This document shows positions 3 to 21,986 of a stretch of 64,000 bases of DNA, in pieces. Source of the DNA: an uncultured Actinomycetes bacterium (lineage in GTDB: Bacteria > Actinomycetota > Thermoleophilia > RBG-16-64-13); contig CAWFCL010000004.1 in NCBI GenBank assembly GCA_963814365.1, positions 495,659 to 559,658 on the forward strand. Reading direction: 5' to 3'. The translations under genes were made by a program, and so were the position numbers. The notes below the pieces were generated by a model. The model was not told where the DNA came from and did no database searches. It saw only the letters and a list, made by a program, of their open reading frames with translations. Positions within the stretch are counted from its first letter, which is position 1; each line of letters opens with the position of its first letter.

Positions 3-3000
3 CTGTGTGGTCGACCGAGTGTTGTCCAGTCCAAGCTGGCCACAGGGGTGGTGCAGGACACAGTAGCCTACGAGTACGACGGCCTGGGGCGCACCATCTC
101 TGTCGATAACAGCACGGTAGACGGCAAGAACGCCCTGAACGTCTACGACGCCCGCGGCAACGTGGTCATCAGCTGGGCGGAGGGGGTGTGCGCGAGCACC
201 GAAGGCTACGTCCTAGAGAAGGGTACCCGATACCTGTTTGACCACGACAATGACCCCAATACCGATGAGATACCTGCTTTCGACGCCATCGGGCGCAGGC
301 TGGCAAGTACCGCCCCGGACAGCGACCCCGCCCTGTTCCACTACTCGGATCCGACCGAGCATCCTACCGATGATATCTGGCTTTGGAAACAAGTGAACCC
401 TGACGGCACCTATGTCAAGTACACCTACGACGCGCTGGGCCGGGTGGTCGCGACCGAGACCTCCCTGGGTGAGACCAGCGCGCAGTACGACCTCGGTGGC
501 CGGGTGAAGAGCGCCACCAACACCAACGGGTTCGTGACCACCTCCAGCTACAACTACCTGGGTCGGATACTCACCACCGGTGCCACACCCGACGCCCAGA
601 CCCCTCCGCCCACCTACTCCACTTTCACCTACAACAACCTGGGCTGGAAGCTCAAGATCCAGGATGCCGATGATTTCACCACGAGCTACGTGTTCGACGT
701 GGTCGGACGCGTGGTCTCGGAGACCACTGCCGGTCATGTGACTACGACCAGCTACGATGATGCGGGTCTTATCCTCTCCAGGAGCGAATCGGCTGAGAGT
801 CGGACGACGATCTTCACCTATGACGACTTCGGTCGGGCGGTAAACGAGACCCAGACCGTGGGTTCGGTGGAGGTGAAGGACAACACCGTCACCTACGATT
901 CCTTGGGTCGAATCACCGGGAGCTTCGATGATGAACGCGACCTAGAGAGTTCCACTACCTATCCCGTCAACACTCCCGCAGACACGACCACGCTAGTAGA
1001 GGTCGGGGTGGCCGGCGACGCCGTGCAGACCGAACTGACTCTGGCCGCCGATGGGTTCGAGACCTCCCGGGCCAGCGTCATAGATGGTGGGCCATCTGTG
1101 TCCCGCGCCGGTATCACAAGAGACGATGCCAAACGGGTGACGGGAGCGACGCTGAGTATCGGAGCTACCGATCTTCTGCAGGGATATGTGTATGACACGA
1201 AGGGTCACCTCGTAGGGCAATCATGGGAGGCACCCGGCGAGCAGGTGGTCTTAGACGCGTCTTATACCTACTCTGGCACTACTGGTCTAAAGACAGGTGA
1301 AGATCTCACGCTGCCCAGCATAGGCGGCGTACTGGGCGGTGGGCCCACCACCACGACCACCCTGGCGCCCACCACGACCACCACCGAGGCATCTACGACC
1401 ACTACCGAATCAGTCACGACCACCACGGTCTCCGGTACCACGACCACCGAGGTGGCCACGACCACCACGACTCTAGCCCCCACCACGACCACCGAACCAC
1501 CGACGACCACTACAGAACCGGCCACCACGACGACCACGGAGCCGGAGCCCGAGACTTCCTTCGCGGACGACTTCACCGCCGACTACACCTATACCACCAG
1601 CGGTCGCCTGGAGACGGCCACCCTCACCGGCGCCACGCAAGAACTGTATGAGTTCTATGACAACGGCAACATCTGGAAGGTGAAGCTAGACTCCTCAGGC
1701 ACTTGGCAGGATCACATCACCTTCGGCTATGACCAAGAGGACCACGACATCCTTGAGACCATGGACGTCACCGGTCAGGCGACCACCTACTTCGGTTACG
1801 ACTTCGGCAAACGCTGGCGAGAAGAGCAGGGCCCGAGCACGAACCCGGACTCGATCACCTACGCCTACACCGGTACCGGACGCCTGGCCACCTATCAAAG
1901 AGAAGCAGAAGGCGCGGAGCCCGCAGTCTCGGCCGCCTACACCTACGACGCCGCCGGTCAACGCATCACCTCGACCGTGACCCAAGGCGGGGTGGTGACG
2001 ACCACGGAGTTCACCTACACCGGCCTTGCCCTGCACAAGCTCGAGGCCACCCAGAGCGGAGGCACTAACCCAGAGAGTTGGAGCCTCACCTATCTCTATG
2101 ACGAGTACGGGAAACCGTATGCAGGTGTGTATCGCAGTCCACAGACGAGCACCACGCCGGAAGTGTTCGCCCTGGTCACCACAGACCGCGGAGATGTGGT
2201 TGAGCTTCTAGACAAGAACGGTGAGGCCTTTGCTGCCTATAGATACGATGCCTGGGGTAACCCCTTGGGTGACGGGAATGCCGGTGATGGCATGTGGGCG
2301 CAGGGGACCACGCTTCTCTCGGGCGACCTCGCCGCGAAGATTTCAGGCCGCCAGGTGCTCCGGTACGCCGGTTACTGCTACGACTCTGAGTCGGGGATGT
2401 ACTACCTCTCCGCCCGCCACTACGACCCCGCCACCAGGCAGTTCCTCAGCAAAGACCTTTCCCGCAACGACGGGGAGCAGAGTGCTTACCAGTACTGCCT
2501 GGGGAACCCGGTGAAGTATGTGGATCCGACGGGGTACGGTGCTTGGGACATCCTTGGGATGTATAGGACGGCTATCGACAAGGTGATAGATGCACGAATC
2601 AAGATACTGAACTTGGTTGAGGACGATGAGGTGACCGTAGAGGAGTACGCCGGTTGCGTGGACAGCTTGCCCAAGGTCGCGGTGCAGTGGCTCAACGACG
2701 AAATCGCGGAACGCGAGATCATCTTTAGCAATCTTGACGACAAGAGATACGACGAGGACGAGGTAGACGCGTGGGATTCGAATCCGGATGAAGAAATTAC
2801 CAAACCCGAGCTGTTCATAGAGCGGAGCTTCGCACTCTACGTCGACGAATACGACTTGATGACAGACGAAGAGAGGGACTACTTCGGGATCATTGGCGGT
2901 GGCCTGTCCGCCGCTCGCGTGTCCCCTCTCAAGCTGCTAAACGAACTGTACGAAGGCGTAGGAGGTGGACTCAAGCAGACCGCCGTGGCTGTTGGGGCCT

Positions 3001-3134
3001 ACAACAACTATGTGTACACGTATCCGTACCTGCGTACTCTTGAAAGACTGGAGCTGCAAAAGCAAATCATGAGGGTGTCGGCCTGCAAGGCGTGGGAGGA
3101 ACCGTGGTACACGGCCAAGTTTCCAGACCAGTAA
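3..3134 (+). CDS. Rhs/YD-repeat protein, module 1 (5'-partial), with Thr-rich insert and C-terminal tip CT1 (~2535-3134)
   Basis: YD repeats (YEYDGLGR, YTYDALGR, YTYDAAGQR). Rhs core end LRYAGYCYDSESGMYYLSARHYDP...NPVKYVDPTG. The frame is open from base 3, so the start may lie upstream of the window. Confidence 0.93.
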   Translation: MCGRPSVVQSKLATGVVQDTVAYEYDGLGRTISVDNSTVDGKNALNVYDARGNVVISWAEGVCASTEGYVLEKGTRYLFDHDNDPNTDEIPAFDAIGRRLASTAPDSDPALFHYSDPTEHPTDDIWLWKQVNPDGTYVKYTYDALGRVVATETSLGETSAQYDLGGRVKSATNTNGFVTTSSYNYLGRILTTGATPDAQTPPPTYSTFTYNNLGWKLKIQDADDFTTSYVFDVVGRVVSETTAGHVTTTSYDDAGLILSRSESAESRTTIFTYDDFGRAVNETQTVGSVEVKDNTVTYDSLGRITGSFDDERDLESSTTYPVNTPADTTTLVEVGVAGDAVQTELTLAADGFETSRASVIDGGPSVSRAGITRDDAKRVTGATLSIGATDLLQGYVYDTKGHLVGQSWEAPGEQVVLDASYTYSGTTGLKTGEDLTLPSIGGVLGGGPTTTTTLAPTTTTTEASTTTTESVTTTTVSGTTTTEVATTTTTLAPTTTTEPPTTTTEPATTTTTEPEPETSFADDFTADYTYTTSGRLETATLTGATQELYEFYDNGNIWKVKLDSSGTWQDHITFGYDQEDHDILETMDVTGQATTYFGYDFGKRWREEQGPSTNPDSITYAYTGTGRLATYQREAEGAEPAVSAAYTYDAAGQRITSTVTQGGVVTTTEFTYTGLALHKLEATQSGGTNPESWSLTYLYDEYGKPYAGVYRSPQTSTTPEVFALVTTDRGDVVELLDKNGEAFAAYRYDAWGNPLGDGNAGDGMWAQGTTLLSGDLAAKISGRQVLRYAGYCYDSESGMYYLSARHYDPATRQFLSKDLSRNDGEQSAYQYCLGNPVKYVDPTGYGAWDILGMYRTAIDKVIDARIKILNLVEDDEVTVEEYAGCVDSLPKVAVQWLNDEIAEREIIFSNLDDKRYDEDEVDAWDSNPDEEITKPELFIERSFALYVDEYDLMTDEERDYFGIIGGGLSAARVSPLKLLNELYEGVGGGLKQTAVAVGAYNNYVYTYPYLRTLERLELQKQIMRVSACKAWEEPWYTAKFPDQ
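1344..1559 (+). repeat. Thr-rich low-complexity (ACC/ACG) mucin-like linker inside the Rhs core
   Basis: PTTTTTLAPTTTTTEASTTTTESVTTTT...EPATTTTTEPEPETS. Second near-identical copy at ~14140-14355. Confidence 0.95.
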
Positions 3135-3510
3135 ACGTGTTGGGGTGGAATGGCGATTTGTCTCGGCCTTGCGCGGCTGCCCTCCGTCCGAATCGCCCCG
3201 CGCATGCGCGAAGAACCACGACAAGGCGGGAACAGACAAAGTGAATGGAGAGTCTGCCACGAAGGACTGCGGAATCGTGCCAGGCAGGTGCTGTTTTGAT
3301 TTGGTCTGCTTGCAGACAGTGTAGATGCTGACTAGCGGACGGTTTGGCTTGGTGGGGTGGGACTACGGAGGCCATGCGGGAGATGTCTTACGCGTGAAGA
3401 GAAAGCCGACGAACCGATGTAGCATGGGCGCGTCCGCAACCGTGCGCGCTGGCCGGGTTCGTCTGAAGCTGATGAGTTGGCTAATAGGGCGGCAAGAAGG
3501 AGAAGAAGCT

Positions 3511-4638: not shown

Positions 4639-4684
4639 GGAGACGCTCTATCGAATTGACCGGGCAAGTTCACTCGAGCTTTGA

Positions 4685-5047
4685 GACGCCATCGCCCAGT
4701 CCATCGGCGAGCTGCCCAAGCAACTGAGAAGATCGCTCACTTGGGACCAGGGAGCGGAGATGGCGCAGCACGCACAGCTTCGCGTCGACACCGGGTTGGC
4801 GATCTACTTCTGCGATCCGCAGAGCCCCTGGCAACGTGGGACGAACGAGAACACCAACGGGCTCTTGCGCCAGTACTTCCCCAAAGGCACAGATCTGAGC
4901 AAACACAGTGCAGAAGATCTCATGGCCGTCGCCACTACCCTCAACAGCCGCCCACGCAAAACCCTCGGATGGAAGACGCCAGCCGAAGCATTCAATGCCC
5001 TGCTATGCTCCTCCAACAGGAGCGGTGTTGCGACCATCCCTTGAACC
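4685..5047 (+). mobile_element. IS30-family transposase 3' fragment with right end
   Basis: LRRSLTWDQGAEMAQH...YFCDPQSPWQRGTNENTNGLLRQYFPKG...LNSRPRKTLGW is the IS30 integrase-core C-terminus. It ends in GGTGTTGCGACCATCCCTTGAACC. The 5' part is missing. Confidence 0.9.
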
Positions 5048-5051
5048 TGGG

Positions 5052-5844
5052 GAGTGCGTATGGGTATTGTCTGGGGAACCCGGTGCTTGGGATTGATCCC
5101 AGTGGGTTCCGTGTGGCCTGGGAGACCGGCAGTCGCGAGACGGATGCAGCGCTGACGGCCAAGTACAGTAAGAAGTGGGCCGAAGAAGCGGCGAGCAGGC
5201 GCGGCCGTTCCTCGGACAATCCCATCGTGCTGTCCCCAGGCCACCCGTCTTACGTGCCATTTCTCGGCCTGAACTACGTGGATGTTTCGATTCCGTGGGA
5301 GTCGGAGCCATGTACCGTGACCATCTCGGCAACTATGGTGTGGCGAGTAGTGTTCTACATGGACCACTGTGCTCTGATGGTCGTTAGTGTGGGGGACCCA
5401 CTGATGACTTCCTCCACGGAGGGCAGCATGGTCACGGGGAGTGGGAAGAGCATCGGCGGGAGCCCCTTCGACGCATACCGGACCGTGATTTCTGGGGAGT
5501 GCTGGGGTGGTTGGAGCGCTCCGGGTTCCATGTGGATGCGAGATGAGTTCACGCAGGTATGTTCCATTGAGATACGGCGCGATCGAGTGGCGATAATCGC
5601 CATTGGGAGGCAGCGCAGTGGTCTTGGATTGGTCCAGTTCGGCACGACCTTGGACGAGAGCGGCAAACCAGTTCCGCAGATTTCAGCGTCCCCTCAGAGT
5701 GTGTGGGATTGGGACTATCCGATGGGTGCGCCGCACTCGCTGATGATAGGAACAGTGCTTGAGGCTACTCTTGGGGGAATGGAACCCGCACGTCCACGCC
5801 GCGACCCATTTCAGGAACCTGTGCTGCCCTATTTTCTCAACTGA
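5052..5844 (+). pseudogene. Orphan Rhs C-terminal tip CT2 (only ~55 nt of core retained, no own start)
   Basis: SAYGYCLGNPVLGIDPSG followed by a unique 245-aa tip. ORF 4681-5844 in the track is a read-through from IS30 DNA. Confidence 0.85.
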
Positions 5845-5891
5845 GACCGACTCATCAGGATATGTGATCATACTCATTTAGGGAGGCCAAG

Positions 5892-7007
5892 ATGCCAGAG
5901 ACGAAGAGAAGCGGAGCCAGCGTGATTTTTCGGGCTGCCGCTATCGTGGTTGCTCTCGCCGTTGTGTTCGGGGCATGTTCTGGGAAAGAGGCGCAAGGGC
6001 CGTCTGTCGACTCGAGCTGTCCCTCTTCTCAGGTTTCTCTATTTCCTGTTCAGGTCGGTATGCAAGTTGGCTACATAAACCAGGCTGGCGAGATGGTGAT
6101 TAACGCCAAATTCGCAGGCGCCTCCAGCTTTTCCGGGGGTCTGGCGGCAGTGAGGGCTGTGGGGTCCGACAATTGGGGCTATATCGACCAGGCTGGCGAA
6201 ATGGTGATTGCGGCGAGGTTTGCAGGAGCCTCCAGTTTCTCTGGGGGGCTGGCAGCAGTCTTACCCGAGGGATCTGATTTGTGGGGTTATGTGAGTCAAG
6301 ACGGGGACATGGCTATCCAGCCAGAATTCTACCAAGCGAACGGCTTCTCCCATGGCCTGGCTTGTGTGCAGCCAAAGCAGGATGGTCCCTGGGGATACAT
6401 TGACGAGGGCGGTCAGATGGTTATCGAACCGCGGTTCTACCGTGCCAACTTCTTCACAGACGGCCTTGCTGCAGTACAAGTTGACCAGGATGGTCCCTGG
6501 GGATACATTGACGAGGGCGGTCAGATGGTTATCGAACCGCGGTTCTACCGTGCCAACTTCTTCACAGACGGCCTTGCTGCAGTACAAGTTGACCAGGGTG
6601 GACTCTGGGGATACATCAGTCGGGACGGGCTGATCGAGATTTCCCAGCGTTTCAGTGAGGCTGGTGTCTTCACCGACGGTCTTGCACCGGTTCGATTGCC
6701 AGATGGCGGCCTCTGCGGCTACATTGATGGGAGTGGTGCTACGGTGATTGAGCCTTCTTTCTTCCAGGTTGGCCTTTTCGCGGAGGGGCTGGCCCCAGTT
6801 CAAGTCGAAGAAGGCGGTCTGTGGGGGTATGTGGATTCAGAAGGCAAGATGCTCATTCAGCCACAATTCCGGAGCGCTTGGCCGTTCAGCAACGGCCTAG
6901 CGTCCGTGAGCTTCGATTCGTCACTGTTCTCGCAAGGCTATATCGACCCAACAGGAAGGGTAGTCTGGAGCAGTGGGCAGAACTGGACCGATAGGGGCTC
7001 CAGGTGA
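5892..7007 (+). CDS. Predicted lipoprotein with WG (KWG-Leptospira-type) beta repeats (partner of CT2)
   Basis: RBS GGGAGG. Lipobox VVFGAC. Repeats of WGYIDxxGxMVIxPxFxxAxxFSxGLAAV. Confidence 0.9.
   Translation: MPETKRSGASVIFRAAAIVVALAVVFGACSGKEAQGPSVDSSCPSSQVSLFPVQVGMQVGYINQAGEMVINAKFAGASSFSGGLAAVRAVGSDNWGYIDQAGEMVIAARFAGASSFSGGLAAVLPEGSDLWGYVSQDGDMAIQPEFYQANGFSHGLACVQPKQDGPWGYIDEGGQMVIEPRFYRANFFTDGLAAVQVDQDGPWGYIDEGGQMVIEPRFYRANFFTDGLAAVQVDQGGLWGYISRDGLIEISQRFSEAGVFTDGLAPVRLPDGGLCGYIDGSGATVIEPSFFQVGLFAEGLAPVQVEEGGLWGYVDSEGKMLIQPQFRSAWPFSNGLASVSFDSSLFSQGYIDPTGRVVWSSGQNWTDRGSR
6378..6597 (+). repeat. Exact 108-bp tandem duplication (one WG repeat unit)
   Basis: GATGGTCCCTGGGGATAC... starts at 6381 and again at 6489, with identical sequence between copies. 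Confidence 0.95.
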
Positions 7008-8875
7008 AGGCCACCACCCTCACCTACGACTCCCTGGGCCGGGTGACCTCCAGCACCGACGGTGCCCGGCATCTGGAGAGCGCCACCATCTACCCGCTGA
7101 ACACCCCCTCGGGAACCACGACCACCATGGAGGTCGGGGTCCAAGCCGACCTGGTCTCGACCCTACTCACCGTGGCCGCCGACGGTTTCGAGACCTCCCG
7201 CTACAGCACCATAGAAGGGGGACCGGAGGTCTTACGCTCCGGTATCGAGCGCGACCATGCCAAACGCCTGACGGGAGCGACGCTGAGTATCGGAGCTACC
7301 GATCTTCTGCAGGGATATGTGTATGACACCAAGGGCCACCTCGTAGGGCAATCATGGGAGGCACCCGGCGAGCAGGTGGTCTTAGACGCGTCTCATACCT
7401 ACTCTGGCACTACTGGTCTAAAGACAGGTGAAGATCTCACGCTGCCCAGCGTAGGCGGCGGCTTCACCGCCGACTACACCTATACCACCAGCGGTCGCCT
7501 GGAGACGGCCACCCTCACCGGCGCCACGCAAGAACTCTATGAGTTCTATGACAACGGCAACATCAGGAAGGTCAAGCTAGACTCCCTAGGCACTTGGCAG
7601 GATTACATCACCTTCGGCTATGACGAAGCAGACCACGACATCCTCAAGACCATGGACGTCACCGGTCAGGCGACCACCTACTTCGGTTACGACTCCGGCA
7701 AGCGCTGGCGAGAAGAGCAGGGCCCGAGCACGAACCCGGACTCGATCACCTATGCCTACACCGGTACCGGACGCCTCTCGACCTACGCAAGAGAGGCAGA
7801 AGCCGCGGAGCCCGCGGTCTCGGCCGCTTACACCTACGACGCCGCCGGTCAGCGCACCACCTCTACTGTGACCATAGACGGTGTGGTGACCACCACGGAT
7901 TTCATCTACACCGGCCTTACCCTGCATAAGCTGAAGGCCACGCGTACCCAAGGCGAGACCACCGAGAGTTGGAGCCTCACCTATCTCTATGACGAGTACG
8001 GGAAACCGTATGCAGGTGTGTATCGCAGTCCACAGACCAGCACCACGCCGGAGGTGTTCGCCCTGGTCACGACAGACAGAGGTGATGTGGCCGAGCTCCT
8101 GGACGCAAACGGCGAGCCCTTTGCCGCCTACCGATACGACGCATGGGGCAACCCCTTGGGGATGGGCAACGCTGGTGATGGCATGTGGGCGCAGGGGACC
8201 ACGCTTCTCTCGGGCGACCTCGCCGCGGAGATCAGCGAGCGTCAGGTCTTACGCTACGCCGGCTACTGCTACGACTCAGAAAGCGGGCTGTACTACCTCT
8301 CCGCCAGGCACTACGACCCTGGGACCCGGCAGTTCCTCTCGAAAGACCTCTCCCGCAACGACGGGGAGCAGAGTGCTTATGGGTATTGTCTGGGGAACCC
8401 GATCGCCAATGTGGACCCGAGCGGATATGCAACTGTCTGTGGGTCGGGTTATGGCGGCAAGGAGCAAGAAACCTCAATGGCGGAGGTGATGGCGGTTCTC
8501 GATCCTGTGGAAGCCGACGACCCCATCACTTGGCAGATGAGTCCATCGGCGGAGAATATGAGACAGAATCTCTGGATTGACCTTTGGAAGTTGGCGAAGG
8601 ATGGACACGACTGCGGGAGCTTCTCTAACCGTGAGACGTTCTACGATGGGAGAGTGGTGGTCGTGGTCGTGGGCAACTGGCATGCGGTCAACGATCTTGG
8701 CTTCCGTATTGAGGACATCGAGGTGAGAGTCTACAACGCGAATGCGAAGATAGACCTGGGAATCCCGGAGAGATACTACGCGGGGCACGAGGTTACCGTG
8801 GTCGCATCCAGTCCGCCGCTTCATGGCCCTGACCCAATAGCCATTGCGGACACGATCCGAAGCGTCTTTCGATGA
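7004..8875 (+). CDS. Orphan Rhs module 3 (partial core lacking the Thr-rich insert) with tip CT3 (~8426-8875)
   Basis: High DNA similarity to module 1 from ~870. Core end NPIANVDPSG. The GTG start overlaps the upstream stop (GTGA). Confidence 0.88.
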   Translation: MKATTLTYDSLGRVTSSTDGARHLESATIYPLNTPSGTTTTMEVGVQADLVSTLLTVAADGFETSRYSTIEGGPEVLRSGIERDHAKRLTGATLSIGATDLLQGYVYDTKGHLVGQSWEAPGEQVVLDASHTYSGTTGLKTGEDLTLPSVGGGFTADYTYTTSGRLETATLTGATQELYEFYDNGNIRKVKLDSLGTWQDYITFGYDEADHDILKTMDVTGQATTYFGYDSGKRWREEQGPSTNPDSITYAYTGTGRLSTYAREAEAAEPAVSAAYTYDAAGQRTTSTVTIDGVVTTTDFIYTGLTLHKLKATRTQGETTESWSLTYLYDEYGKPYAGVYRSPQTSTTPEVFALVTTDRGDVAELLDANGEPFAAYRYDAWGNPLGMGNAGDGMWAQGTTLLSGDLAAEISERQVLRYAGYCYDSESGLYYLSARHYDPGTRQFLSKDLSRNDGEQSAYGYCLGNPIANVDPSGYATVCGSGYGGKEQETSMAEVMAVLDPVEADDPITWQMSPSAENMRQNLWIDLWKLAKDGHDCGSFSNRETFYDGRVVVVVVGNWHAVNDLGFRIEDIEVRVYNANAKIDLGIPERYYAGHEVTVVASSPPLHGPDPIAIADTIRSVFR

Positions 8876-9549: not shown

Positions 9550-9573
9550 CCCAGAATCACGGTGCGCAGTGCG

Positions 9574-9825
9574 CTGATCTCGACAGAGACCTCTCTGGGT
9601 GAGACCAGCGCGCAGTACGACCTCGGCGGCCGGGTGAAGAGCGCCACCAACACCAAATGGTTCGTCACCAAGTCCGAATACGACCATCATGGGCGTGTCA
9701 CCCGCAGTGGAGCGGTGCCCACGGGCCAGGCCGACCCCATCGCCTGGTCCGAGTATGCCTGCAACAACCTGGGCTGGAGGCTCAAGGTCCAAGACGCCGA
9801 CGGCTTCACCACCGCATGCGAGTTC
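9574..9825 (+). pseudogene. Short Rhs core fragment
   Basis: TETSLGETSAQYDLGGRVKSATNT...NNLGWRLKVQDADGFTT matches module 1 at ~450-685. Truncated at both ends. Confidence 0.85.
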
Positions 9826-9870
9826 GAGAAGAGGTTCTCGTACTTGAGTGGTTGGTGCCAGGTTGACCCT

Positions 9871-9948
9871 GTCCAGGCTGAAGAGCAGCGACGCTCGCTG
9901 ACCGCGTCCGTTCCGGGATAGAATAGAAGCCGGAGGTGGTTGGGATGG
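9871..9948 (+). repeat. 78-bp dispersed direct repeat, copy 1 (leader of the MNT gene)
   Basis: 70/78 identical by eye to 24110-24187. Contains the inverted repeat CAGCGA-cgc-TCGCTG, TAGAAT, GGAGGTGG and the ATG at 9945. Confidence 0.9.
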
Positions 9949-10247
9949 CCGAACAGTTCCTAGCCGAGAGTAAGCAGATAGTCGGTTTCTGCAGACGGCA
10001 CCAAGTCTTGGAGCTCGCCGTCTTCGGCTCTGCCCTGCGCAGTGACTTCGGTCCGGACAGCGACGTCGACCTCCTGGTGACCTTCGATCCCGAGGCAAAG
10101 GTCTCGCTGTTCGACCTTGTGGACATGGCAGATGAGCTTGCGAAGATTGTGGGCCGCCGGGTCGATATCGTGACCAAACAGGGGCTCAAGCCTCGGATAC
10201 GCCAGTCGGTACTGGACAGCTCCAAGGTCATCTATGACGCGGCGTGA
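9945..10247 (+). CDS. Minimal nucleotidyltransferase (MNT/MntA-type antitoxin)
   Basis: LAVFGSALRSDFGPDSDVDLLV (GS..DxD motif), ~100 aa, directly upstream of a HEPN gene. Confidence 0.9.
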   Translation: MAEQFLAESKQIVGFCRRHQVLELAVFGSALRSDFGPDSDVDLLVTFDPEAKVSLFDLVDMADELAKIVGRRVDIVTKQGLKPRIRQSVLDSSKVIYDAA

Positions 10248-10501
10248 CGACTTGTATCTGGCCGATATCGTCGACGCTGCCAAGGCCACTCAGTCTCATA
10301 GGCGAAGCTGCCGCCAGGGTGTCTGAGGAGACCCGACGGGCACATCCGGATATCCCATGGCATCAGGCTCGCGGCGTGAGGAATCTGCTCGTGCACGCCT
10401 ACTTCTCAGTCGACTGGGACATCGTCTGGACCACTGCCGTAGAATCGGTGCCCAAACTGGCCGAGCAGGTGGGCGCGCTGATTCGAGCGGAAGGGGATTG
10501 A
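10234..10501 (+). pseudogene. DUF86/HepT-type HEPN toxin, internally deleted and frameshifted
   Basis: N-terminus MTRRDDLYLADIVDAAKA is in one frame. IGEAAARVS...IPW...RNLLVHAY (Rx4HxY) is in another. The intervening ~25 codons typical of DUF86 are absent. Confidence 0.8.
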
Positions 10502-10502
10502 C

Positions 10503-12152
10503 GCCACCACGACAACCACAGAGCCGGAGCCCGAGACTTCCTTCGCGGACGACTTCACCGCCGACTACACCTATACCACCAGCGGTCGCCTGGAGACGGC
10601 CACCCTCACCGGCGCCACGCAAGAACTGTATGAGTTCTATGACAACGGCAACATCTGGAAGGTGAAGCTAGACTCCTCAGGCACTTGGCAGGATCACATC
10701 ACCTTCGGCTATGACCAAGAGGACCACAATATCCTCGAGACCATGGACGTCACCGGTCAGGCGACCACCTACTTCGGTTACGACTCCGGCAAGCGCTGGC
10801 GAGAAACGCAGGGCCCGAGCACGAACCCGGACTCGATCACCTACGCCTACACCGGTACCGGACGCCTGGCCACCTATCAAAGAGAAGCAGAAGCCGCGGA
10901 GCCCGCGGTCTCGGCCGCCTACACCTACGACGCCGCCGGTCAGCGCACCACCTCGACCGTGACCATAGACGGTGTGGTGTCCACGACGGAGTTCACCTAC
11001 ACCGGTCTAGCCCTACACAAGCTAGAGGCCACGCGCACCCAGGGCGAGGTCACCGAGAGTTGGAGCCTCACCTATCTCTATGACGAGTACGGGAAACCGT
11101 ATGCAGGTGTGTATCGCAGTCCACAGACGAGCGAGGACCCGACCGTCTTCTCCATGGTCACCTCCGACCGCGGGGACGTGCTTGCCCTCCTAGATGAGAA
11201 CGGATATCCCTTCGCCGCCTATAGATATGACGCCTGGGGTAGTCCGCTAGGCCAAGGTAACGCAGGAGATGGTATCTGGGCCCAGGCCACCAGCCAAGGC
11301 GAGACTGAGACCATCAGCCTGGAACTGGCCGCCACCATCGCGACTCGCCAGGTGCTCAGATATGCCGGTTACTGCTACGACCCAGAAAGCGGCCTCTACT
11401 ACCTCTCCGCCCGCCACTACGACCCCGCCACCAGGCAGTTCCTCAGTAAGGACCTTTCTCGTAACGACGGGGAGCAGAGCGCCTATGGGTACTGTCTGGG
11501 GAACCCCATCGCCAATGTGGATCCGACGGGGTTGGTCGCTGTCGCCTATGCTCCTGGTGCCCGGAAAGAACGAAACCCACAGCACGTCAGCGATAGGCGA
11601 GAGGCTGATTGGAGCAACCCTGCCAATAGGGTTGACGCCAACTTGAGGGTAGTCGTGGTTGAGAGCGCCGATATCGCTGAGCATCCGGGAGGGTTCTTGG
11701 GATATAAGGTTGGGGACGTCGTCGTGACCTACAGATGCCAAGACGAGAGTCCTTCGGGCTCCAACGGTATCGCATACGTCGTAATCGCCGTCGACTCGTA
11801 CGGTGCGGTATCGGAGGACCCGGACGTTCTGGACCTGTGGAACGGCACGTTCACAGAGGTTGTGCGCACAGCAGACATCACGCACTTCGAAGCTCGGCCT
11901 CTGCGTCCCTCATTCACCCAGTATGTCTTCCATGCTGACCTCTTGTCGAATCCTGATCAAGAATGGAGTAGTTGGTCCCCCAGGGGGGTCACCTACCAAG
12001 TTCATGTCGATGCCTACGACCGGAACGGAGGGTTCGTGGAGCATGTTTGCGCCATCACTGAAGTCTCGTGGCCCTTGTGCGACTCGCAAGGACTGCTGCT
12101 CGAGATCATGACTTACGTCGATCTGAGAGAGGGTCTATTTGGGCCCAAATAG
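10503..12152 (+). pseudogene. Orphan Rhs module 4 with tip CT4 (~11532-12152)
   Basis: Homology begins inside the Thr-rich linker (ATTTTTEPEPETSFADDF), in frame with ORF 10662-12152. Core end NPIANVDPTG. Confidence 0.88.
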
Positions 12153-12229
12153 GGGTGGCGTGCCGAAGGTTCTCTTGGCATCGTGTGAAGAGCGGAGGAG
12201 GAACCAGGAATTCCGAGAAAGATGGAGGC

Positions 12230-13378
12230 ATGATGATCTTCATGAGACTGACGGCCCTAATAGCAGCAGCAGCGGCCACAGTGGTAGTCGGCTGTTCTTC
12301 GCAGGCTCACAACACCCCGCCGTCAACCGATTCAGCATCGCCTCCCGAGGTAGTCGCCTCGATGTTCAGGGCCAACCCGGAGAGAACCGGGGAGTATGAG
12401 GCCTTAGGACCCAATGAAAACCACCGGGTTGTCTGGGTGATGTCTTCGAACGAGCGGATTGTCTCGTCGCCGGCCTTATCGGGGCGTGAGGTTTACATCG
12501 GCATCGGTGCGGACCTTGTCGTCCTTGACCTGGCGAGCGGGAAACAGAGATGGAGTTTCCCAGCGGGGGACAACATCGCGTCCTCGCCGGCTGTTGCGGG
12601 TGGCCTGGTGTACTTCGGCTCGGACGACTCGCACTTCTATGCATTGGACGCAGGGAGCGGGGAAGAGGCATGGGACTTCGTGACCGGCTCCCGGGTCTCG
12701 TCCTCTCCCGTAGTAGTCGATAACGTCGTCTACTTCGGCTCAGACGACTACCACCTCTATGCGCTCGATGCCGGTACTGGGGACGAGCTGTGGAGATTTC
12801 GTACGGGCCAAGAGATAGTCTCATCTCCCGCTATTGCGAACGGAGCGGTTTACGCCGGAAGTGGGGACGGACACCTCTATGCGATTGACGCTGACAGTGG
12901 TGAGGAGATGTGGAGATTCGCCACACGGGGCGTCATCTACTCCTCTCCGGCCGTATCGAAGGGAGTCGTGTACTTCGCCAGCTATGATCATTGGGTTTAT
13001 GCGGTCGACGCCGAGTCCGGCAGGGAACTGTGGCGATTCGACGCTCACGCACCAGTCTTCTGCTCTCCCGCTGTCTGGAGCGGTTCGGTTTACATTGGCA
13101 GCAGCAATGGTCGCCTGCACGCGTTGGATGCCGAGAACGGCGAAGAGCGTTGGTACTTCGAGGCGCGACAAGGATTCGCAATTGACTCATCGCCGGTAGC
13201 GGCGGCCGGGATGGTGTTCTTCGGCAGCAACGATGGCTACCTCTACGTGGTAGACGCTGAGAGCGGTGAGCAGGCGTGGAGATTTCGGACCAACTCGGAA
13301 ATGGTGGCCTCACCCGTGATCCACGATGGGGCACTATATGCGGCGACTGTCACGGGCGGCCTGATTGTTCTGAAGTGA
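12230..13378 (+). CDS. Predicted lipoprotein with PQQ-like (BamB-type) beta-propeller repeats (partner of CT4)
   Basis: Lipobox TVVVGC. Repeats of SSPAVxxGxVYFGSxDxxLYALDAxSGxExWxF. Start is at 12230, 12233 or 12242. Confidence 0.9.
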   Translation: MMIFMRLTALIAAAAATVVVGCSSQAHNTPPSTDSASPPEVVASMFRANPERTGEYEALGPNENHRVVWVMSSNERIVSSPALSGREVYIGIGADLVVLDLASGKQRWSFPAGDNIASSPAVAGGLVYFGSDDSHFYALDAGSGEEAWDFVTGSRVSSSPVVVDNVVYFGSDDYHLYALDAGTGDELWRFRTGQEIVSSPAIANGAVYAGSGDGHLYAIDADSGEEMWRFATRGVIYSSPAVSKGVVYFASYDHWVYAVDAESGRELWRFDAHAPVFCSPAVWSGSVYIGSSNGRLHALDAENGEERWYFEARQGFAIDSSPVAAAGMVFFGSNDGYLYVVDAESGEQAWRFRTNSEMVASPVIHDGALYAATVTGGLIVLK

Positions 13379-13419
13379 TACCAGAGGACTGCTCCCAATG
13401 TTGTGCACTCCAGTCCCAG

Positions 13420-16014
13420 TACCTGTACAACAACCTGGGCTGGAGGCTCAAGGTCCAAGACGCCGATGGTTTCACCACCAGCTACGTGTTCGACGTGGCC
13501 GGGCGGGTCACCTCGGAGACCACCGCCGGTCATGTGACTACGACCAGCTACGATGATGCCGGTCTCATCCTGTCCAGGAGCGAATCGGCTGAGAGTCGGA
13601 CGACGATCTTCACCTACGATGACTTCGGCCGGGCAGTCAATGAGACCCAGACCGTGGGTTCGGTGGAGGTGAAGGACAACACCGTCACCTACGATTCCTT
13701 GGGTCGAATCACCGGGAGCTTCGATGATGAACGCGACCTAGAGAGTTCCACTACCTATCCCGTCAACACTCCCGCAGACACGACCACGCTAGTAGAGGTC
13801 GGGGTGGCCGGCGACGCCGTGCAGACCGAACTGACTCTGGCCGCCGATGGGTTCGAGACCTCCCGGGCCAGCGTCATAGATGGTGGGCCATCTGTGTCCC
13901 GCGCCGGTATCACAAGAGACGATGCCAAACGGGTGACGGGAGCGACGCTGAGTATCGGAGCTACCGATCTTCTGCAGGGATATGTGTATGACACGAAGGG
14001 TCACCTCGTAGGGCAATCATGGGAGGCACCCGGCGAGCAGGTGGTCTTAGACGCGTCTTATACCTACTCTGGCACTACTGGTCTAAAGACAGGTGAAGAT
14101 CTCACGCTGCCCAGCATAGGCGGCGTACTGGGCGGTGGGCCCACCACCACGACCACCCTGGCGCCCACCACGACCACCACCGAGGCATCTACGACCACTA
14201 CCGAATCAGTCACGACCACCACGGTCTCCGGTACCACGACCACCGAGGTGGCCACGACCACCACGACTCTAGCCCCCACCACGACCACCGAACCACCGAC
14301 GACCACTACAGAACCGGCCACCACGACGACCACGGAGCCGGCGCCCGAGACTTCCTTCGCGGGCGACTTCACCGCCGCCTATACCTACACCACCAGCGGT
14401 CGTCTAGAGACGGCCACCCTCACCGGCGCCACGCAAGAACGCTATGAGTTCTACGACAACGGCAACATCTGGAAGGTCAAGCTAGACGCCTCAGGCACTT
14501 GGCAGGACTACGTCACCTTCGGCTATGACCAAGAGGACCACAATATCCTCGAGACCATGGACGTCACCGGTCAGGCGACCACCTACTTCGGTTACGACTC
14601 CGGCAAGCGCTGGCGAGAAGAGCAGGGCCCGAGCACGAACCCGGACTCGATCACCTACGCCTACACCGGTACCGGACGCCTGGCCACCTATCAAAGAGAA
14701 GCAGAAGCCGCGGAGCCCGCGGTCTCGGCCGCCTACACCTACGACGCCGCCGGTCAGCGCACCACCTCGGCTGTGACCATAGACGGTGTGGTGACCAACA
14801 CGGAGTTCACCTATACCGGCCTTACCCTGCATAAGCTGAAGGCCACTCGTACCGAGGGCGAGGTCACCGAGAGTTGGAGCATCACCTATCTCTATGATGA
14901 GTACGGTAGACCATATGCCGGTGTCTATCGGAGTCCGCAGACCAGCACCACCCCGGAGGTCTTCGCCCTGGTCACCACCGACCGAGGTGACATCGTCGAG
15001 CTCTTGGACGCAAACGGCGAGCCCTTCGCCGCCTACCGCTACGACGCCTGGGGTAACCCTTTGGGTGAGGGCAACGCCGGTGAGGGCATGTGGACGCAGG
15101 GGACCACGCTTCTCTCGGGCGACCTCGCCGCGGAGATCAGCGAGCGTCAGGTCTTACGCTACGCCGGCTACTGCTACGACTCTGAGTCGGGGATGTACTA
15201 CCTCTCTGCCCGGCACTACGACCCGGAGACGCGGCAGTTCCTCAGCAAGGACCTCTCCCGCAACGACGGGGAGCAGAGCGCGTATGGGTATTGTCTGGGG
15301 AATCCGATATTCGGTACTGACTCCACTGGTTTCAGACCTCTGTTCGAGACAGGCAGTCGTGAGACTGATCACGAGGCGCTGAAGCAGTGGAGCAAGCGGA
15401 AGGCAGAGGAAGCGCGCGAGGGGGCACCAGAGTGGGCTACTAAGGCGCACATAAGTCCTCTAGCTCCCGAGTGGATGTATCTGCCTTGGCAAGACAATCC
15501 TCCGAGTGACCTAACTACCTACTACAACGCGTGTATGCGTGACTGCTGCGCCAACATCAAGGGATATGGCGGTAGGGCGAAGGCGCTGCTGATAGTTCTC
15601 TACAGAATCCAGGTAACGCATGAATGGGACCCATTGGTGGTCAACGCCGGCCCGGTCAATCTGGACGCGCTGGTGGCGAACATAGGCATGGATGAACATT
15701 ATATGGACAGACACTACTTCGGAAATTTCTGGGCCGGGGTGATGTTTTCGGCGCTTGAAGAGCCATATAGGGAGATGGCTATCGAGGCCAGTCTCTTGGA
15801 GGCGCAAGTGCGGGCCAAGAATGTTCTGGAGAGTAGGTATCCGGCCATTAGAGACGGGGATTTGGATCCAATGGCTGCAAATCGAGAGTACTTCGACGCC
15901 CTTGACCACGAAGCGTGGGATCAGAGGATCATCAGAGAGGGTGTCAGGTATGGATTGACCGAAATCATGCCCTATGTCGACTACTGCGATTGCTCCTATT
16001 GGTTCTTCAAGTGA
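13420..16014 (+). pseudogene. Orphan Rhs module 5 with Thr-rich insert and tip CT5 (~15331-16014, Ntox44-like)
   Basis: Near-identical to module 1 at an offset of 12796 bp. Core end NPIFGTDSTG. No convincing start (ORF 13276 begins inside the upstream gene). Confidence 0.88.
13510..14340 (+). repeat. Long near-exact direct repeat of module 1 (714-1544)
   Basis: Identical shadow ORFs at 959-1198 and 13755-13994. Only a few substitutions visible. Confidence 0.92.
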
Positions 16015-16038
16015 TATCTGACTGAAGGAGAGAGCTTT

Positions 16039-17130: not shown

Positions 17131-17251
17131 GCAGGGCTCCGCATAGGTCTGTTGGTGGCCGGCGCCCTCTTGGCAGGTCGCAAGTGGGTGCGCACTCTCG
17201 CGCAACGAGGGTTCAAAGTGAAGTCAGAGTCGTCTTGGGGTCGTGGTCGCC

Positions 17252-20200
17252 ACGGCAAGGACGCCCTGAACGTCTACGACGCCCGTGGCAACGTGGTCAT
17301 CAGCTGGGCGGAGGGGGTCTGCGACGACACCTACACTCCGAGTGGGTACACTCTGAACCGGGCGTCGCGAGCCTGGTATGACGCGCTGGGGCGCAAGACT
17401 CAGAGCTTCTCGCCCGACAGTAAGAACGCAGTAGGCGAGGAGCGTTTCACCACCTACACCTACAACGACGACGGTCTCCTCCTGCGCACCACCAACCCTG
17501 ACTATAGCTGGGTAGAGAACACGGCGTACGACAAGTGTGGGCGCGTGACCGATACCCAGTTCTCGACAGGCGACGGTACCTCGGCTACCACCAGCGCCAC
17601 CTATGACCCGGCGGGCCGCCTCATGACGGCCACCAACGCCAACGGTTTCGAGACCGAGTTCACCTACGACCACCTCGGCCGCCAGACCGCGGCCGGATAC
17701 GCTGGGTTCACCGCCGAGTCCCAGTTCACCTACAACACCCTGGGGTGGAACCTCGCGACCCAAGACGCCGATGGTTTTGCCACCACCTACCTCTACGACA
17801 AGGTGGGTCGGGTCCTCTCGGAGACGACGGCCGACTACGTGACGGTGGCTGAGTACAACACCGCCGGTCAGTTGCTCACCCAGGCCAAGTACCCGATGGG
17901 GCAATCGAGTACCCCCGAACGCAGGACCAACTTCACCTACGACGTCTTCGGCCGGGCCATCAATGAGGAGCAACTCCTGCACCCCGGGCAACCCGAGGAG
18001 GAGACAGTCAGAGACCTCACCAACCAATACGACTCCCTGAGCCGGGTGACCCTTAGCGACGACGACGGGCTCGATCTCCACCACCGCTTCACCTACCCGG
18101 TGAACACCACCAGCGGCACCACTGACACCGCCTTCATCGGCCCCGAAAGCTCGGATTCAGCGACCGTCGTCATCACCGTGGACGCCCACGGCCTGGAGAC
18201 CAGCCGCGCCCTGGATATCGACCCGCTTGACCCCTATCAGCCTGTCGCGGAGATCATCCGCACCATCGATCCAGAGGACGGCCGTGACGACGCCCGCCGG
18301 GTGACCGCGGCTTACCTCGACCATGACGCTCTCACACAGACCCCCGACCTCCTGCAGGCCGCCTACGACTACGACCAGGCCGGACACCTCATCGCCCAAG
18401 GCGGGGTGGGCTTCACGGCGGCCGGCGCCACCTACGAATACGATGTCTCCGAGACTGAGACAACCTGGGCCAGCGGACTCAAGATCGAGGAGCACCTGAA
18501 CCTCACCTTAGTGGGCTCGGCCGGGGCGATCTCCGCCACCTACACCTACGACGAAGACTCAGAGAACCGCCTAGAGTCTGCCACCATGGATATCGACGGC
18601 GATGACACCGACGACATCACCGACACCTACGACTTCGACCAGGCCGGTAACCTGCAGAGCGTCATCGGCGCGGGCGGCACCTGGAGCTACCTCTACGGCT
18701 ATGAAGCCGACCCCGCCTCCGACTCCAACCGCCTGGTGCGCATCGACAAAGACGGCGCCCCTCAGATGCACTTCACCTTCGACCCCGAGGACCGCTGGCG
18801 GACCATGCAGGCCCCCACCAGCGCCCAAGACGACCCCGACCGCGAGCTCTTCACCTACACCGAAGCCGGGAGACTCGCCACCTACCAGAGGTACGAGGGC
18901 GGCACCCTGGCTCTCACGGCCACCTACACCTACGACCCAGCCGGTCAGCGCAAGCGCTCCGTGGTCACCGAAGGCACAGGCGAAGACGAGGTCATCACCA
19001 CCACGGAGTACACCTACGTAGGCCTCAGCCTGCAGGAGCTAAGAGCCACTCAAGACGGCGCCCAGACGGCGAGCTGGACCATAACCTACCTGCACGACGA
19101 AGCCGGTAGACCCTACGGAGGCATCTACCGGGATAGCGAGACCCAAGGCCCGCAGTTCTTCCTGCTGGTCACGACCGACCGCGGAGACGTGGTCTCGCTC
19201 ACCGACAAGAACGGAAATCCCTTCGCCGCTTACCGCTATGACCCGTGGGGGGATCCAGTAGGAGAGGTCTCACCGCCTCCGCTCGTAAGGCACGAAGAGG
19301 ACGACACCGCCCTTACCTACCAAGGCACCTGGACAACCACCCAAGACCAGGAGGCCTCCGCAGGCAGCCTCACCAGTACCGATGAGACCGGGGCCTCGGT
19401 CACCTATGAGTTCACCGGCACCGGAGTGGACTGGATAACGACCACGTCCGCCATCCAAGGCATCGCCAGCGTGACCCTAGACGGCGGCACCCCCGAGCTC
19501 ATCGACCTCCACAGCGAAAGCACGGTCTACCAGCAGAGCGCATGGACCAGCGACGCCCTGGAGGCAGGCACCCATACCCTCGTCATCGCGTGGACCGGCA
19601 CCAAGAACGAGAACTCATCGGGTACCACCATCGGGGTGGACGCTCTTGACGTCACCGGTGTCCCAGAGGCAGGTCACCGGCCACCGGGGTCTGGGCGCAG
19701 CAGACCTTGGATGCCGAGAGCGAGACGGTCATCAGCGCCGAGCTGGCGGAGACGATCAGCCGGCGCCAGGTGCTGCGCTACGCCGGGTACTGCTACGACC
19801 AAGAAAGCGAGATGTACTACTTGTCCGCGCGGCACTACGACCCCGAGACGAGGCTGTTCCTCTCCAAGGACCCTTCCCGTAACGACGGGGAGCAGAGCGC
19901 GTATCAGTACTGTCTGGGGAACCCGGTGGGGTTGGTGGATCCAACGGGGTACATACCTCTCTGGGAGACCGGCAGTCGCGAGACGGATGCAGCGCTGACG
20001 AGACAGTGGGCTGAAAAGAAGCGAGAAGAAGCGTTGGCTAGGGTACTGTTGGCGAGCCAGGTGGTCTTTCGAGGGACACCTGAGGTGCAGGGCGCGACGC
20101 AGGCAAGTGTGGAATGGGTCACGATACGCGCCGAAGAGTGGGGGATAATTCCGTACCTTGACGGCACATGGGATGAAGGGTGGTATACAGCAACGATAAC

Positions 20201-20651
20201 CATCACAGAGGGCAGGTACGGCGTGAGGGCTACGCTCACCTGGTACTGGGACGGCACCTATCACGTTTCTAGCTTGCAGCATACCGGGGAGACATCCAGC
20301 CTTTCTCCCGTCCTGGGAACCGCAGGGGACGAGATGTGGGGTGGTGGAGTGACTGCAATCATCGGGTGGAAGTGGACCACTAGCCCCTCCGGTTCGTTTT
20401 ATGGGCCGATCATGACCGACGAAGACAGCCGAGTTCCGATCGAGGCATACTTGGGAACTCTGAAGTCTGTTTGGCCCAGGTCGCATTTCGTTATCCCAAT
20501 GTCCATGCAGGGGATCACAGACAACGGCGGCTCTCTCAGTGTGAGCATGTTTGTGGTGGGCGGGAAGGTCATGCTTACCAATCTTCGTTCTCAGTACCTG
20601 GGTTGGGAGACATGGCCAGATGACATTCCCGAGATCAGTTGGGACGAATGA
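17252..20651 (+). pseudogene. Rhs module 6 (diverged core paralog, inserted beta-sandwich domain, frameshift at ~19680) with tip CT6 (~19950-20651)
   Basis: Homology starts at GKDALNVYDARGNVVISWAEGVC. ORFs 17152-19998 and 19707-20651 join by one frameshift. Core end NPVGLVDPTG. Confidence 0.85.
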
Positions 20652-20756
20652 GGCCGAGTTGAACCGTCGTGGAACCAGGATATTTGCACTTATCGAGGCG
20701 TGACGTTGTCTCGGTGTGCAGGGCAGTCTCGACGAAGTCCGAGGAGGAGACCATTC

Positions 20757-21857
20757 ATGATGAAGCGGTTGACTATGCTAGTACTGATTCTCTTCAGTTC
20801 TTCTGTCCTGGCGATCGCTGGCTGCGGCGACCCTCCAATGGGTACGGTGTCTTCAGGTACTGGTTCTACGGTCGGTACGTCCGGGTCGGATGCAGCACTG
20901 ATTGATGACATATGGTCCTACGATTCAGCTGCCCAAGCCTGGGCGCGACTATCTCCCAAGGGGGAATTGCCACCCGCAGCCTCCCACGTCGTATACGACC
21001 AGGATGCAGGTCAGGCCATTCTGTTCTCACACGACTTGAGCCATCTGTGGCGCTATGACTACTCGCGGAATGCGTGGACGCACATTGAAGCAGGTGGCAG
21101 AATACCCTCCATGCGTCAGGCGGGGAAGTTGATCTACTGCTCAGCCGATCGCCAGGTACTACTTGTTGGGGGAATGGCTCCCGATCCCAGCGGGTCATCG
21201 GAGCGCAGGGTCGCGTTCTTGAATGACACATGGTCGTACGACGTGTCCGAGAATTTGTGGTCCGAAGTTGCCCCTACAGGTGATTCTCCTGAGCTGGGGC
21301 CACTCACGGCGATGGTCTACGATTCAAGTAGGGGGCGGGTGGTAGTGTTCTCGGGCCAGCCCGACCGAGAGTCCACGGTCACGAACGACACCTGGTCGTA
21401 CGATCCTCTGCAGAACTCCTGGACAGCATTGGGACGGCCGGAGGGTCCACTGGTGATTCTGCGCGAGTACTCAGCCGTGTACGTTCCCTCAGTAGACAGG
21501 GTCCTCCTGTTCGGTGGGGCTGACCTGGATGACCCGGGAGGTGCTTCGACTGCGGACTTGTGGGCGTACGACCCGGAAAGCAACACTTGGAGCGAGCTTC
21601 ATCCCGAAGGGGCAATGCCAGCAGGACGTCAACTTCCGGTCATGGTGTACGATCCTTGGGGTGACGCAGTTCTTCTTGCGGGAGGGATAAAGCAAGATGG
21701 AGGTACGGTCTCCGTTCTGAGCGACACGTGGTCCTACGATCCTTCGGCCAACATGTGGACTGAACTTCATCCTCGGGGAACAATGCAGCAGCCGGGCTGG
21801 TTTGACCGCGCCGTGTTCGATATCGCTGCCGGAAGGATGCTTGTCATCGGGCAGTAG
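20757..21857 (+). CDS. Predicted lipoprotein with Kelch beta-propeller repeats (partner of CT6)
   Basis: RBS GAGGAGG, ATG at 20757. Lipobox LAIAGC. Repeats of LLxGG...DTWSYDP...W. Confidence 0.88.
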   Translation: MMKRLTMLVLILFSSSVLAIAGCGDPPMGTVSSGTGSTVGTSGSDAALIDDIWSYDSAAQAWARLSPKGELPPAASHVVYDQDAGQAILFSHDLSHLWRYDYSRNAWTHIEAGGRIPSMRQAGKLIYCSADRQVLLVGGMAPDPSGSSERRVAFLNDTWSYDVSENLWSEVAPTGDSPELGPLTAMVYDSSRGRVVVFSGQPDRESTVTNDTWSYDPLQNSWTALGRPEGPLVILREYSAVYVPSVDRVLLFGGADLDDPGGASTADLWAYDPESNTWSELHPEGAMPAGRQLPVMVYDPWGDAVLLAGGIKQDGGTVSVLSDTWSYDPSANMWTELHPRGTMQQPGWFDRAVFDIAAGRMLVIGQ

Positions 21858-21986
21858 ATGCACGACTGCTTAAGGGTCTGCGCACGCGGTGACGAGTGGC
21901 GAAACCAACGTGTCCCGCGTCAACTTCTTTGGCCACTTTCCCCCCAAAATAGGTGTGGCTCTTCCAGGTAGATCTCGCGCACCAGC

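Follow-up and report, generated by a model that had tools for sequence, protein, structure and literature searches.

The 64,000-nucleotide stretch of an uncultured Actinomycetes bacterium analysed here (hereafter the window; G000:C4:495659-559658, from the genome G000 of 2.6 Mb, 10 contigs and 87% completeness) opens with an array of Rhs cassettes. The array spans window positions 3-21857 and consists of the 3′ end of a gene for an Rhs protein of 2995 amino acids (aa), followed by five orphan cassettes. Each of its six C-terminal tips is paired with a predicted lipoprotein, in five cases a β-propeller. By analogy with toxins that act in the envelope of other bacteria, it is probable (roughly 0.6) that these pairs are toxin/immunity cassettes, in which the tips would act in the envelope and be neutralised there by the membrane-anchored lipoprotein binders. 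We infer the toxicity of the tips, their site of action, and their binding and neutralisation by the partners. Extracellular immunity, one of two interpretations offered in the original prediction, is the best fit because of gene position, co-inheritance and analogy, but it is less unprecedented than had been implied.

Six units of core end, tip and lipobox-bearing partner follow one another in the order originally described, and the motifs, tip lengths and signal peptides were all recovered. The core-end motif GNPxxxxD(P/S)(S/T)G occurs six times and is followed by tips of 199, 245, 149, 206, 227 and 233 aa (T1 to T6). Directly after each tip, and on the same strand, lies its partner gene (P1 to P6) with a Shine-Dalgarno-like sequence before the start. 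The distance from tip stop to partner start is 25-106 nt in five of the six pairs and 377 nt before P1. The partners carry signal peptides of 22-29 aa, with a positive n-region and a hydrophobic core, which end in LPGC, FGAC, PSGC, VVGC, GTGC and IAGC. Together with the presence of two Lgt genes and one LspA gene in the genome, the n- and h-regions and the lipobox cysteine mark all six, on a heuristic reading, as predicted signal peptidase II (SPII) lipoproteins.

Five of the partners are propellers of four families and the sixth is a different protein, as judged from hidden Markov model (HMM) matches above cut-off, a structural model and Foldseek. P1 (3511..4638, on the + strand, as are all cassette features given below; signal MIHRKHLAIFLLTVGLLLLPGC, Cys codon 3574) has a TTG start behind a Shine-Dalgarno-like GAAGGAG. 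It is an Msarc/TolB-like propeller, matching TIGR04275 beta_prop_Msarc in 7 stretches (2.5e-39, 132.7 bits against a cut-off of 85). P2 (5892..7007, Cys codon 5976) consists of WG repeats (PF14903 WG_beta_rep, 5.5e-74). As it is not self-evident that such repeats form a propeller, mature P2 was modelled with AlphaFold2 (AF2) from a 36-row alignment. The model reached a pLDDT of 94 and a pTM of 0.87, and its Foldseek matches are 8/9-bladed propellers, including designed ones, the lipoprotein BamB and eIF2A (TMq 0.65). P4 (12230..13378, Cys codon 12293) is PQQ/BamB-like (PF13360, 6.8e-61; PF13570, 8.5e-68), P5 (16039..17130, Cys codon 16117) is a Kelch propeller (Kelch, 1.1e-56), and so is P6 (20757..21857, Cys codon 20823), which matches Beta-prop_ATRN-LZTR1 (3.8e-50) and Kelch families. 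P3 (8902..9549, Cys codon 8965) falls outside the propellers; its mature form of 194 aa is not a repeat protein, no family was found for it in the Pfam and NCBIfam scans, and a word search of 5.8 billion proteins returned P3 alone. Still, paralogues of P3 also stand after two other, unrelated tips of the same genome. The lengths of 360-385 aa first given for the propellers have to be corrected, since the likely starts of P1, P4 and P6, like that of P3, lie inside the longest open reading frames (ORFs), which leaves mature partners of 337-361 aa.

G000 has four Rhs arrays, the window array and three more. Across the four, a lipobox ORF stands right after 14 of the 15 tips and a transmembrane (TM) protein after the remaining one, so that every tip has a putatively exported partner; one tip/partner pair is exactly duplicated across two arrays, which leaves 14 distinct pairs. 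Partners in the other three arrays are WG, Msarc-type, Kelch and P3-family proteins and two small lipoproteins. The idea that four sequence-distinct propeller families, all predicted lipoproteins, occupy the partner slot is supported, and the pairing of tips with exported partners holds across the genome.

Rhs core sequences were detected in 18 of 61 genomes of a sample of genus, family and class (G000 counted). In G001, which belongs to the same genus, T5 has a counterpart with 52% identity (L044:16850-17485), and the closest relative of P5 is the Kelch lipoprotein encoded immediately after this tip (41%, 4.7e-95). Both T5 and P5 are more diverged from their G001 counterparts than the core (69-75% identity). 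The A3 tip likewise has a counterpart in G001, with 39% identity, and in this second pair the small membrane-anchored partners come from one family. Co-inheritance with co-divergence is thereby seen for two pairs and suggests, as far as sequences can tell, that tip and partner move as a unit. The tip-propeller adjacency that was to be looked for in related genomes is accordingly found there, with the T5/Kelch pair kept in G001 and the pattern recurring in further relatives. The smaller G001 array comprises three full-length tips followed by Kelch, Msarc-type and Kelch lipoproteins, and a fourth tip truncated to 46 aa. The larger one (L041-L043, G001:C5:1158001-1208000) comprises 12 cassettes, 11 recognised by motif and one by eye, with six small soluble ORFs, five lipoproteins or TM proteins (two WG, one DUF4352 and two of a small family) and one unclear case in the partner position. 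Several tips of this larger array are bipartite, with an N-terminal part of 104-121 aa that is Trp/Lys-rich and 90-95% identical, and a C-terminal part of ~110 aa that differs.

Comparison of 31 tips of the lineage with Pfam gave one tip each for Tox-REase-9 (1.2e-29), Ntox44 (1.9e-6) and Cry1Ac_dom-VII (0.0038, below the cut-off). Behind the Tox-REase-9 nuclease tip, from G001, stands a soluble ORF of 84 aa. Ntox44 tips precede lipoproteins, of the Kelch type in G005 (a further tip, 1.3e-9, L049:8400-10404; Kelch 1.6e-64) and of the WG type in G032 (tip 1.9e-6, L046:7282-9224; WG 5.8e-66). Of 401 genomes of the phylum searched for Ntox44, 2 contained it, and in G097 the downstream gene is on the opposite strand. 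Tips of G020 and G018 look membrane-active, and multi-TM or TM proteins come after them. The contrast within the lineage, where a predicted nuclease tip has a soluble partner whereas other tips have exported ones, fits the logic that the immunity protein is localised where the tip would act. The tips of the window do not look like nucleases, all being acidic and none of the six having a match above cut-off in Pfam or NCBIfam.

The gene that expresses the first tip lies at G000:C4:489805-498792 (L054:805-9789; + strand), and window positions 3-3134 are its 3′ end. From N- to C-terminus the 2995-aa product shows a signal-peptide-like start, a pectate-lyase-like stretch, CWB2 (8.7e-12), DUF6531 and RHS repeats. 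The C-terminal part of its core (3..2534) matches PF05593 RHS_repeat (3.5e-10) and ends in the aspartyl-protease motif. For the same family R1, R5 and R6 score between 3.5e-10 and 1.1e-17, R3 is marginal, and the full-length protein reaches 8e-20. Searches of the 87%-complete genome detected neither the sheath protein VipB of type VI secretion systems (T6SS) nor Omp85. Based on the signal peptide, CWB2 and the Rhs core, on the searches for VipB and Omp85, and on the presence of Lgt and LspA, the toxin looks like a Sec-exported, wall-anchored Rhs protein of the WapA type in an apparently single-membrane bacterium. The signal peptide, the wall-binding domain and the lack of a detected T6SS all agree with this type, but a small cytoplasmic immunity protein, which also belongs to it, is not what follows the tips.

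A working model can be outlined on this basis. The 2995-aa protein would leave the cell via Sec and be retained on the wall by CWB2, and its C-terminal toxin tip would be released via the Rhs aspartyl-protease motif. The five downstream orphan cassettes would store alternative tips, and recombination in the common core could swap the expressed one. Each tip would travel with its own immunity gene, encoding a lipoprotein on the outer face of the cytoplasmic membrane that is mostly a propeller. The target of the tip would be extracytoplasmic, i.e. the membrane, lipid-linked precursors or the wall. In the wall zone the tethered propeller would bind and block its cognate tip, by which the producer and its kin may be protected from the tips of neighbours.

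Several observations weigh against extracytoplasmic immunity in this form. No tip of the window has a recognisable activity, which makes the envelope target a guess. Ntox44 appears among toxins grouped by predicted activity, with no immunity family given in the accessible part of that census (Zhang et al. 2012, PMC3482391); should it act in the cytoplasm, the localisation logic fails. One partner family occurs with unrelated tips and Ntox44 with two propeller families, so that specific binding has to be assumed pair by pair. Not all members of the propeller families lie in Rhs arrays: three of six full-length Kelch proteins, three of six full-length Msarc-type proteins and one of four PQQ proteins are in-array. 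In other phyla, a crude test for YD motifs recognised no upstream Rhs-like ORF at any of 80 loci with the nearest WG relatives (loci from a 3-row alignment query, ~8 of the 80 with <700 nt of upstream sequence), which indicates that the propeller scaffolds are not dedicated immunity families. Moreover, the lipoprotein status of P1 to P6 is a heuristic reading of signal and lipobox, with LPGC, PSGC and GTGC atypical at -3/-2, and an AF2 model of T5 from a 4-row alignment was unusable (pLDDT 45).

Coincidence, i.e. abundant lipoprotein genes that merely happen to lie between Rhs fragments with no functional link, is hardly credible as an explanation of the array. Lipoprotein-like ORFs make up 11% of the long ORFs of G000 under a lax lipobox classifier (169 of 1491), and propeller lipoproteins are encoded elsewhere in the genome. 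At this background six out of six in a row would arise by chance with a frequency of ~2e-6, however, and the near-complete pairing is distributed over four separate arrays. These arrays cover ~3.5% of the genome, yet they hold all four full-length WG proteins and three of the four P3-family proteins, and the same pairing recurs in G001, G005 and G032, including one co-inherited pair. It is also improbable, albeit less so, that the partners are functional companions of the tips other than immunity proteins. They could then be part of a receptor or recognition code, a split teneurin-like assembly, a targeting lectin, or a factor for deployment or activation. Propellers commonly serve as ligand and lectin modules, and umbrella toxin particles are described as targeting via β-propeller lectins (PMC11062931, PMC13274773). 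The immunity-like genes for Tli and PefE are, according to one report, required for toxin activation (bioRxiv 10.1101/2023.03.28.534661), and the partner families are also found away from Rhs genes. Yet the partner is polymorphic and tied to every tip cassette, including orphans with no N-terminal delivery region, which is the signature of an immunity gene, whereas targeting and anchoring factors usually accompany the conserved part of a toxin, as in the case of MafA (PMC3482391). The full-length Rhs protein possesses wall-binding, pectate-lyase-like and DUF6531 domains of its own, and its Pfam scan returned no β-propeller domain. The alternative proposal of a teneurin-like ligand-receptor code is not borne out: the propellers follow the tips rather than the YD shell, belong to four families and are not fused to it. 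As a recognition code it is further disfavoured by bona fide toxin domains, Ntox44 and Tox-REase-9, at the equivalent positions of relatives.

A possible but unlikely alternative keeps the immunity function and moves the site of tip action into the target cell, so that surface propellers would trap incoming tips before membrane crossing. Ntox44 is listed as a predicted enzymatic toxin domain and precedes propeller lipoproteins in G005 and G032, and some membrane immunity proteins have been proposed to prevent uptake (both in the accessible text of Zhang et al. 2012, PMC3482391). Several lipoprotein-partnered tips (arrays A and C; G032) have a basic N-terminal 60 aa with a pI of 9.3-10.9. The same segment has a pI of at least 10 in six of six G001 tips with soluble partners, and may be a membrane-entry module. 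Conversely, the six window tips lack such a basic segment (pI 4.1-6.9) and are acidic overall, and the clear cytoplasmic toxin of the lineage, Tox-REase-9, pairs with a small soluble ORF. A Sec-exporting producer would need no cytoplasmic self-protection, yet capture as the sole safeguard must be near-complete. A broader form of the idea, which we hold just as tentatively, is a modular surface immunity of this lineage, in which four tethered propeller scaffolds and the 194-aa family would intercept incoming Rhs tips in the wall zone, whatever their activity, and immunity would work by exclusion. Tethered lipoproteins may then evolve new specificities and may also stop enzyme-type tips such as Ntox44 outside the cell, and stand-alone lipoprotein clusters would serve as orphan shields from neighbours' tips. 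A cluster of this kind lies at G000:C10:7801-12724 (- strand), where three lipoprotein genes (P3-family, unassigned and Msarc-type) have no Rhs gene upstream; an orphan immunity island is one possible reading, a group of ordinary lipoproteins the other. Also outside any Rhs array, a 2104-aa ORF at G000:C5:486418-492729 (+ strand) matches P1 with 775 bits (828 for P1 with itself) and, given this score, encodes a giant protein with many Msarc-type propeller repeats.

In keeping with the preferred assignment to toxin/immunity cassettes, the array has the anatomy of classic orphan Rhs cassettes, as read from the sequence. In a blastn self-comparison the core DNA is 77-92% identical between cassettes and this homology ceases at 2535, 8420, 11532, 15306 and 19952, which are tip boundaries. 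A core end of the type ARHYDPxTRQF...GNPxxxxDPxG is present in all six cassettes, with DSTG replacing DPxG in cassette 5; cleavage at this site is predicted. The tip of the expressed full-length gene, T1, occupies 2535..3134 (199 aa, pI 4.3). Cassette 2 (5052..5844) comprises a core end of ~18 codons (5052-5106) and T2 (5107-5844, 245 aa), cassette 3 (7004..8875) a core fragment (7004-8425) and T3 (8426-8875, 149 aa). Cassette 4 (9562..12152) has frameshifted core remnants (9562-10661), an intact core (10662-11531) and T4 (11532-12152, 206 aa). Cassette 5 (13276..16014) has a core fragment that is 92% identical in DNA to the main gene across 1.9 kb, followed by T5 (15331-16014, 227 aa). Cassette 6 (17152..20651) contains a divergent core with an insert of ~130 aa and, behind the insert, a frameshift near 19.67-19.69 kb, and T6 (19950-20651, 233 aa). 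The initial description of core fragments joined to tips therefore stands for an array of orphan cassettes with core sequence in each, but it has to be qualified for cassette 2, where the core is limited to the ~18 codons and the ORF upstream is not Rhs-like, and for cassettes 4 and 6 with their frameshifted cores. The insert of cassette 6 (window ~19250-19690; LVRHEEDDTALTYQGTW...GVDALDV) is β-rich, lies just before the plug region and has no equivalent in the other cores; its likeness to a carbohydrate-binding module is by eye only. Another insert, Thr/Pro-rich and of low complexity (~78 aa, TTTTTLAPTTTTTE...), is found in the core of the main gene (window 1330-1562) and of cassette 5 (14125-14360). 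The core of cassette 3 lacks it, the homology jumping over 1330-1562. Its role may be that of a glycosylated linker or of a loop on the shell surface.

The six tips were described as unique, and by BLAST they are indeed mutually unrelated, apart from an N-terminal segment of ~30 residues, ETGSRETD...EEA, common to T2, T5 and T6 and to tip C2 elsewhere in the genome (window 5107-5200, 15331-15420 and 19950-20040; L056:12852-12950). Between T2 and T6 the likeness is limited to the first 27 aa. The segment is predicted as helical in the low-confidence T5 model, and could serve as a linker, as a plug or as a handle for recombination. All six tips are acidic overall (pI 4.3-5.3) and have no TM segments. 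None of them exceeds a family cut-off in Pfam or NCBIfam, none of the ~14 distinct Rhs tips of G000 does so in Pfam, and comparison of T1 to T6 with PDB sequences gave nothing significant; arabinanase matches of T5 (E 0.0036) and two further matches at E ~0.4 were dismissed as chance. Relatives are scarce. No homologue of T1 was found in 60 other genomes of the family, and nothing usable came from the ESM Atlas (scores 0.89). T4 had no relative in a metagenome scan, and T5 has two clear homologues only among 1.84 billion representatives. T6 gave one weak match in the metagenome scan, 29% over 64 aa, to a secreted protein (L141:572-1201) with no adjoining Rhs gene. This protein appears NTF2/SnoaL-like by eye and has a GTAGDEMW motif in common with T6, but the match is too weak for a fold assignment. 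A relation of T5 to Ntox44 was also considered. T5 does not reach the 24-bit cut-off of PF15607, having no Pfam match at E <= 10. In a language-model search 26 of its 30 nearest clusters fall in a set that is ~25% Ntox44-bearing, with recognition below the reliability mark. An hhalign comparison of the T5 family with Ntox44 tips gave a probability of 3%, and a second comparison was dominated by the Rhs core shared in its rows.

Downstream, the array is closed by a transposase fragment with an integrase (rve) core domain (21844..22485, - strand; rve_3 3.1e-19, rve 4.8e-12). The remainder of the window, 24394-62706, is ordinary chromosome with genes for an H+-pyrophosphatase, two amino-acid permeases, an amidohydrolase, an MMPL transporter, a PucR-type regulator, a PAS/GAF hybrid histidine kinase, glutamine synthetase and glutamate synthase. 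No tRNA genes were found across the 64-kb window. A promoter and terminator scan of positions 2500-22400 gave no excess over shuffled sequences (8 vs 5.4±2.2 and 14 vs 10.1±3.1).

Work on immunity to polymorphic toxins has dealt mostly with small cytoplasmic binders. The WapA/WapI system of Bacillus subtilis, attributed to Koskiniemi and co-workers in 2013, is reportedly a wall-associated Rhs contact-dependent toxin whose tips are tRNases and whose immunity protein WapI is small and cytoplasmic. The Rhs protein described here resembles WapA in the Sec signal, the N-terminal wall-binding domain, the Rhs/YD shell, the polymorphic tip at DPxG, the adjoining immunity gene and the lack of a T6SS. 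It differs in having 337-361-aa propeller lipoproteins as partners, tips that fall in no known family, and as many as five orphan cassettes. Main rhs genes with recombinable modules of core fragment, tip and immunity gene are also described in enterobacterial orphan arrays, e.g. of Salmonella, but these rely on T6SS delivery and are countered by small cytoplasmic immunity proteins (PMC3967940).

For the location of the presumed immunity proteins, the closest parallel is TelC-TipC of Streptococcus intermedius, where membrane-anchored TipC neutralises TelC in the inner wall zone. Both are Gram-positive settings with membrane-anchored immunity against the toxin of neighbours, described there and inferred here. 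However, TelC is an LXG lipid II phosphatase that belongs to a type VII secretion system (T7SS), TipC is a small α/β crescent anchored by a TM helix, and no Rhs array is involved (PMC6193138). In the Tle/Tli and PefD/PefE pairs the immunity proteins, a lipoprotein with ankyrin repeats (Tli) and a predicted β-propeller (PefE), are likewise exported, built on a repeat or propeller scaffold and, for protection, required outside the cytoplasmic membrane (bioRxiv 10.1101/2023.03.28.534661). Those are single pairs of Gram-negative T6SS with effectors that act in the periplasm, whereas here four propeller families are distributed across ~14 distinct Rhs tips. In the 2012 census, to the extent of its accessible text, β-propellers are not among the immunity proteins and Imm65 is the sole lipoprotein immunity family (PMC3482391). 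The Lipocone toxins offer a further likeness, as lipid head groups or wall precursors are the predicted targets of their tips and every immunity protein is TM or a lipoprotein, proposed to work in the way TipC does. The folds named in the available part of that study (BamE-like, jelly-roll, 4-TM, OB and SAS-6-like) include no propellers (PMC12419801), and there was no evidence for a Lipocone domain in the tips described here. Extracytoplasmic immunity by TM proteins and lipoproteins is thus already established for envelope-acting toxins, and both the components and the principle have precedent. No description of four propeller families as lipoprotein partners of wall-anchored Rhs tips was found in the literature, and the supplementary neighbourhood tables of two studies may hold such cases (PMC12419801, PMC13018210).

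Should the pairs be confirmed, the tips would represent a reservoir of uncharacterised toxins, probably directed at the Gram-positive envelope, and the propellers a natural collection of evolvable binders anchored on the outside of the cell. The widespread toxin family Ntox44 would gain candidate immunity partners and a hint on its site of action. The comparison with teneurins, finally, delimits what is distinct in this locus. Bacterial teneurin-like proteins share with it a YD shell around a C-terminal toxin and a downstream immunity gene, and the Gram-positive ones are wall-anchored and Sec-exported. In teneurins themselves an FN-plug and an NHL propeller belong to the chain of the shell (PMC13018210), whereas Pfam finds no propeller in the Rhs protein described here, and its propellers are separate lipoproteins of four families, one per tip. 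Compared with each of these systems, the unusual aspect of the array is the nature and location of its presumed immunity proteins.

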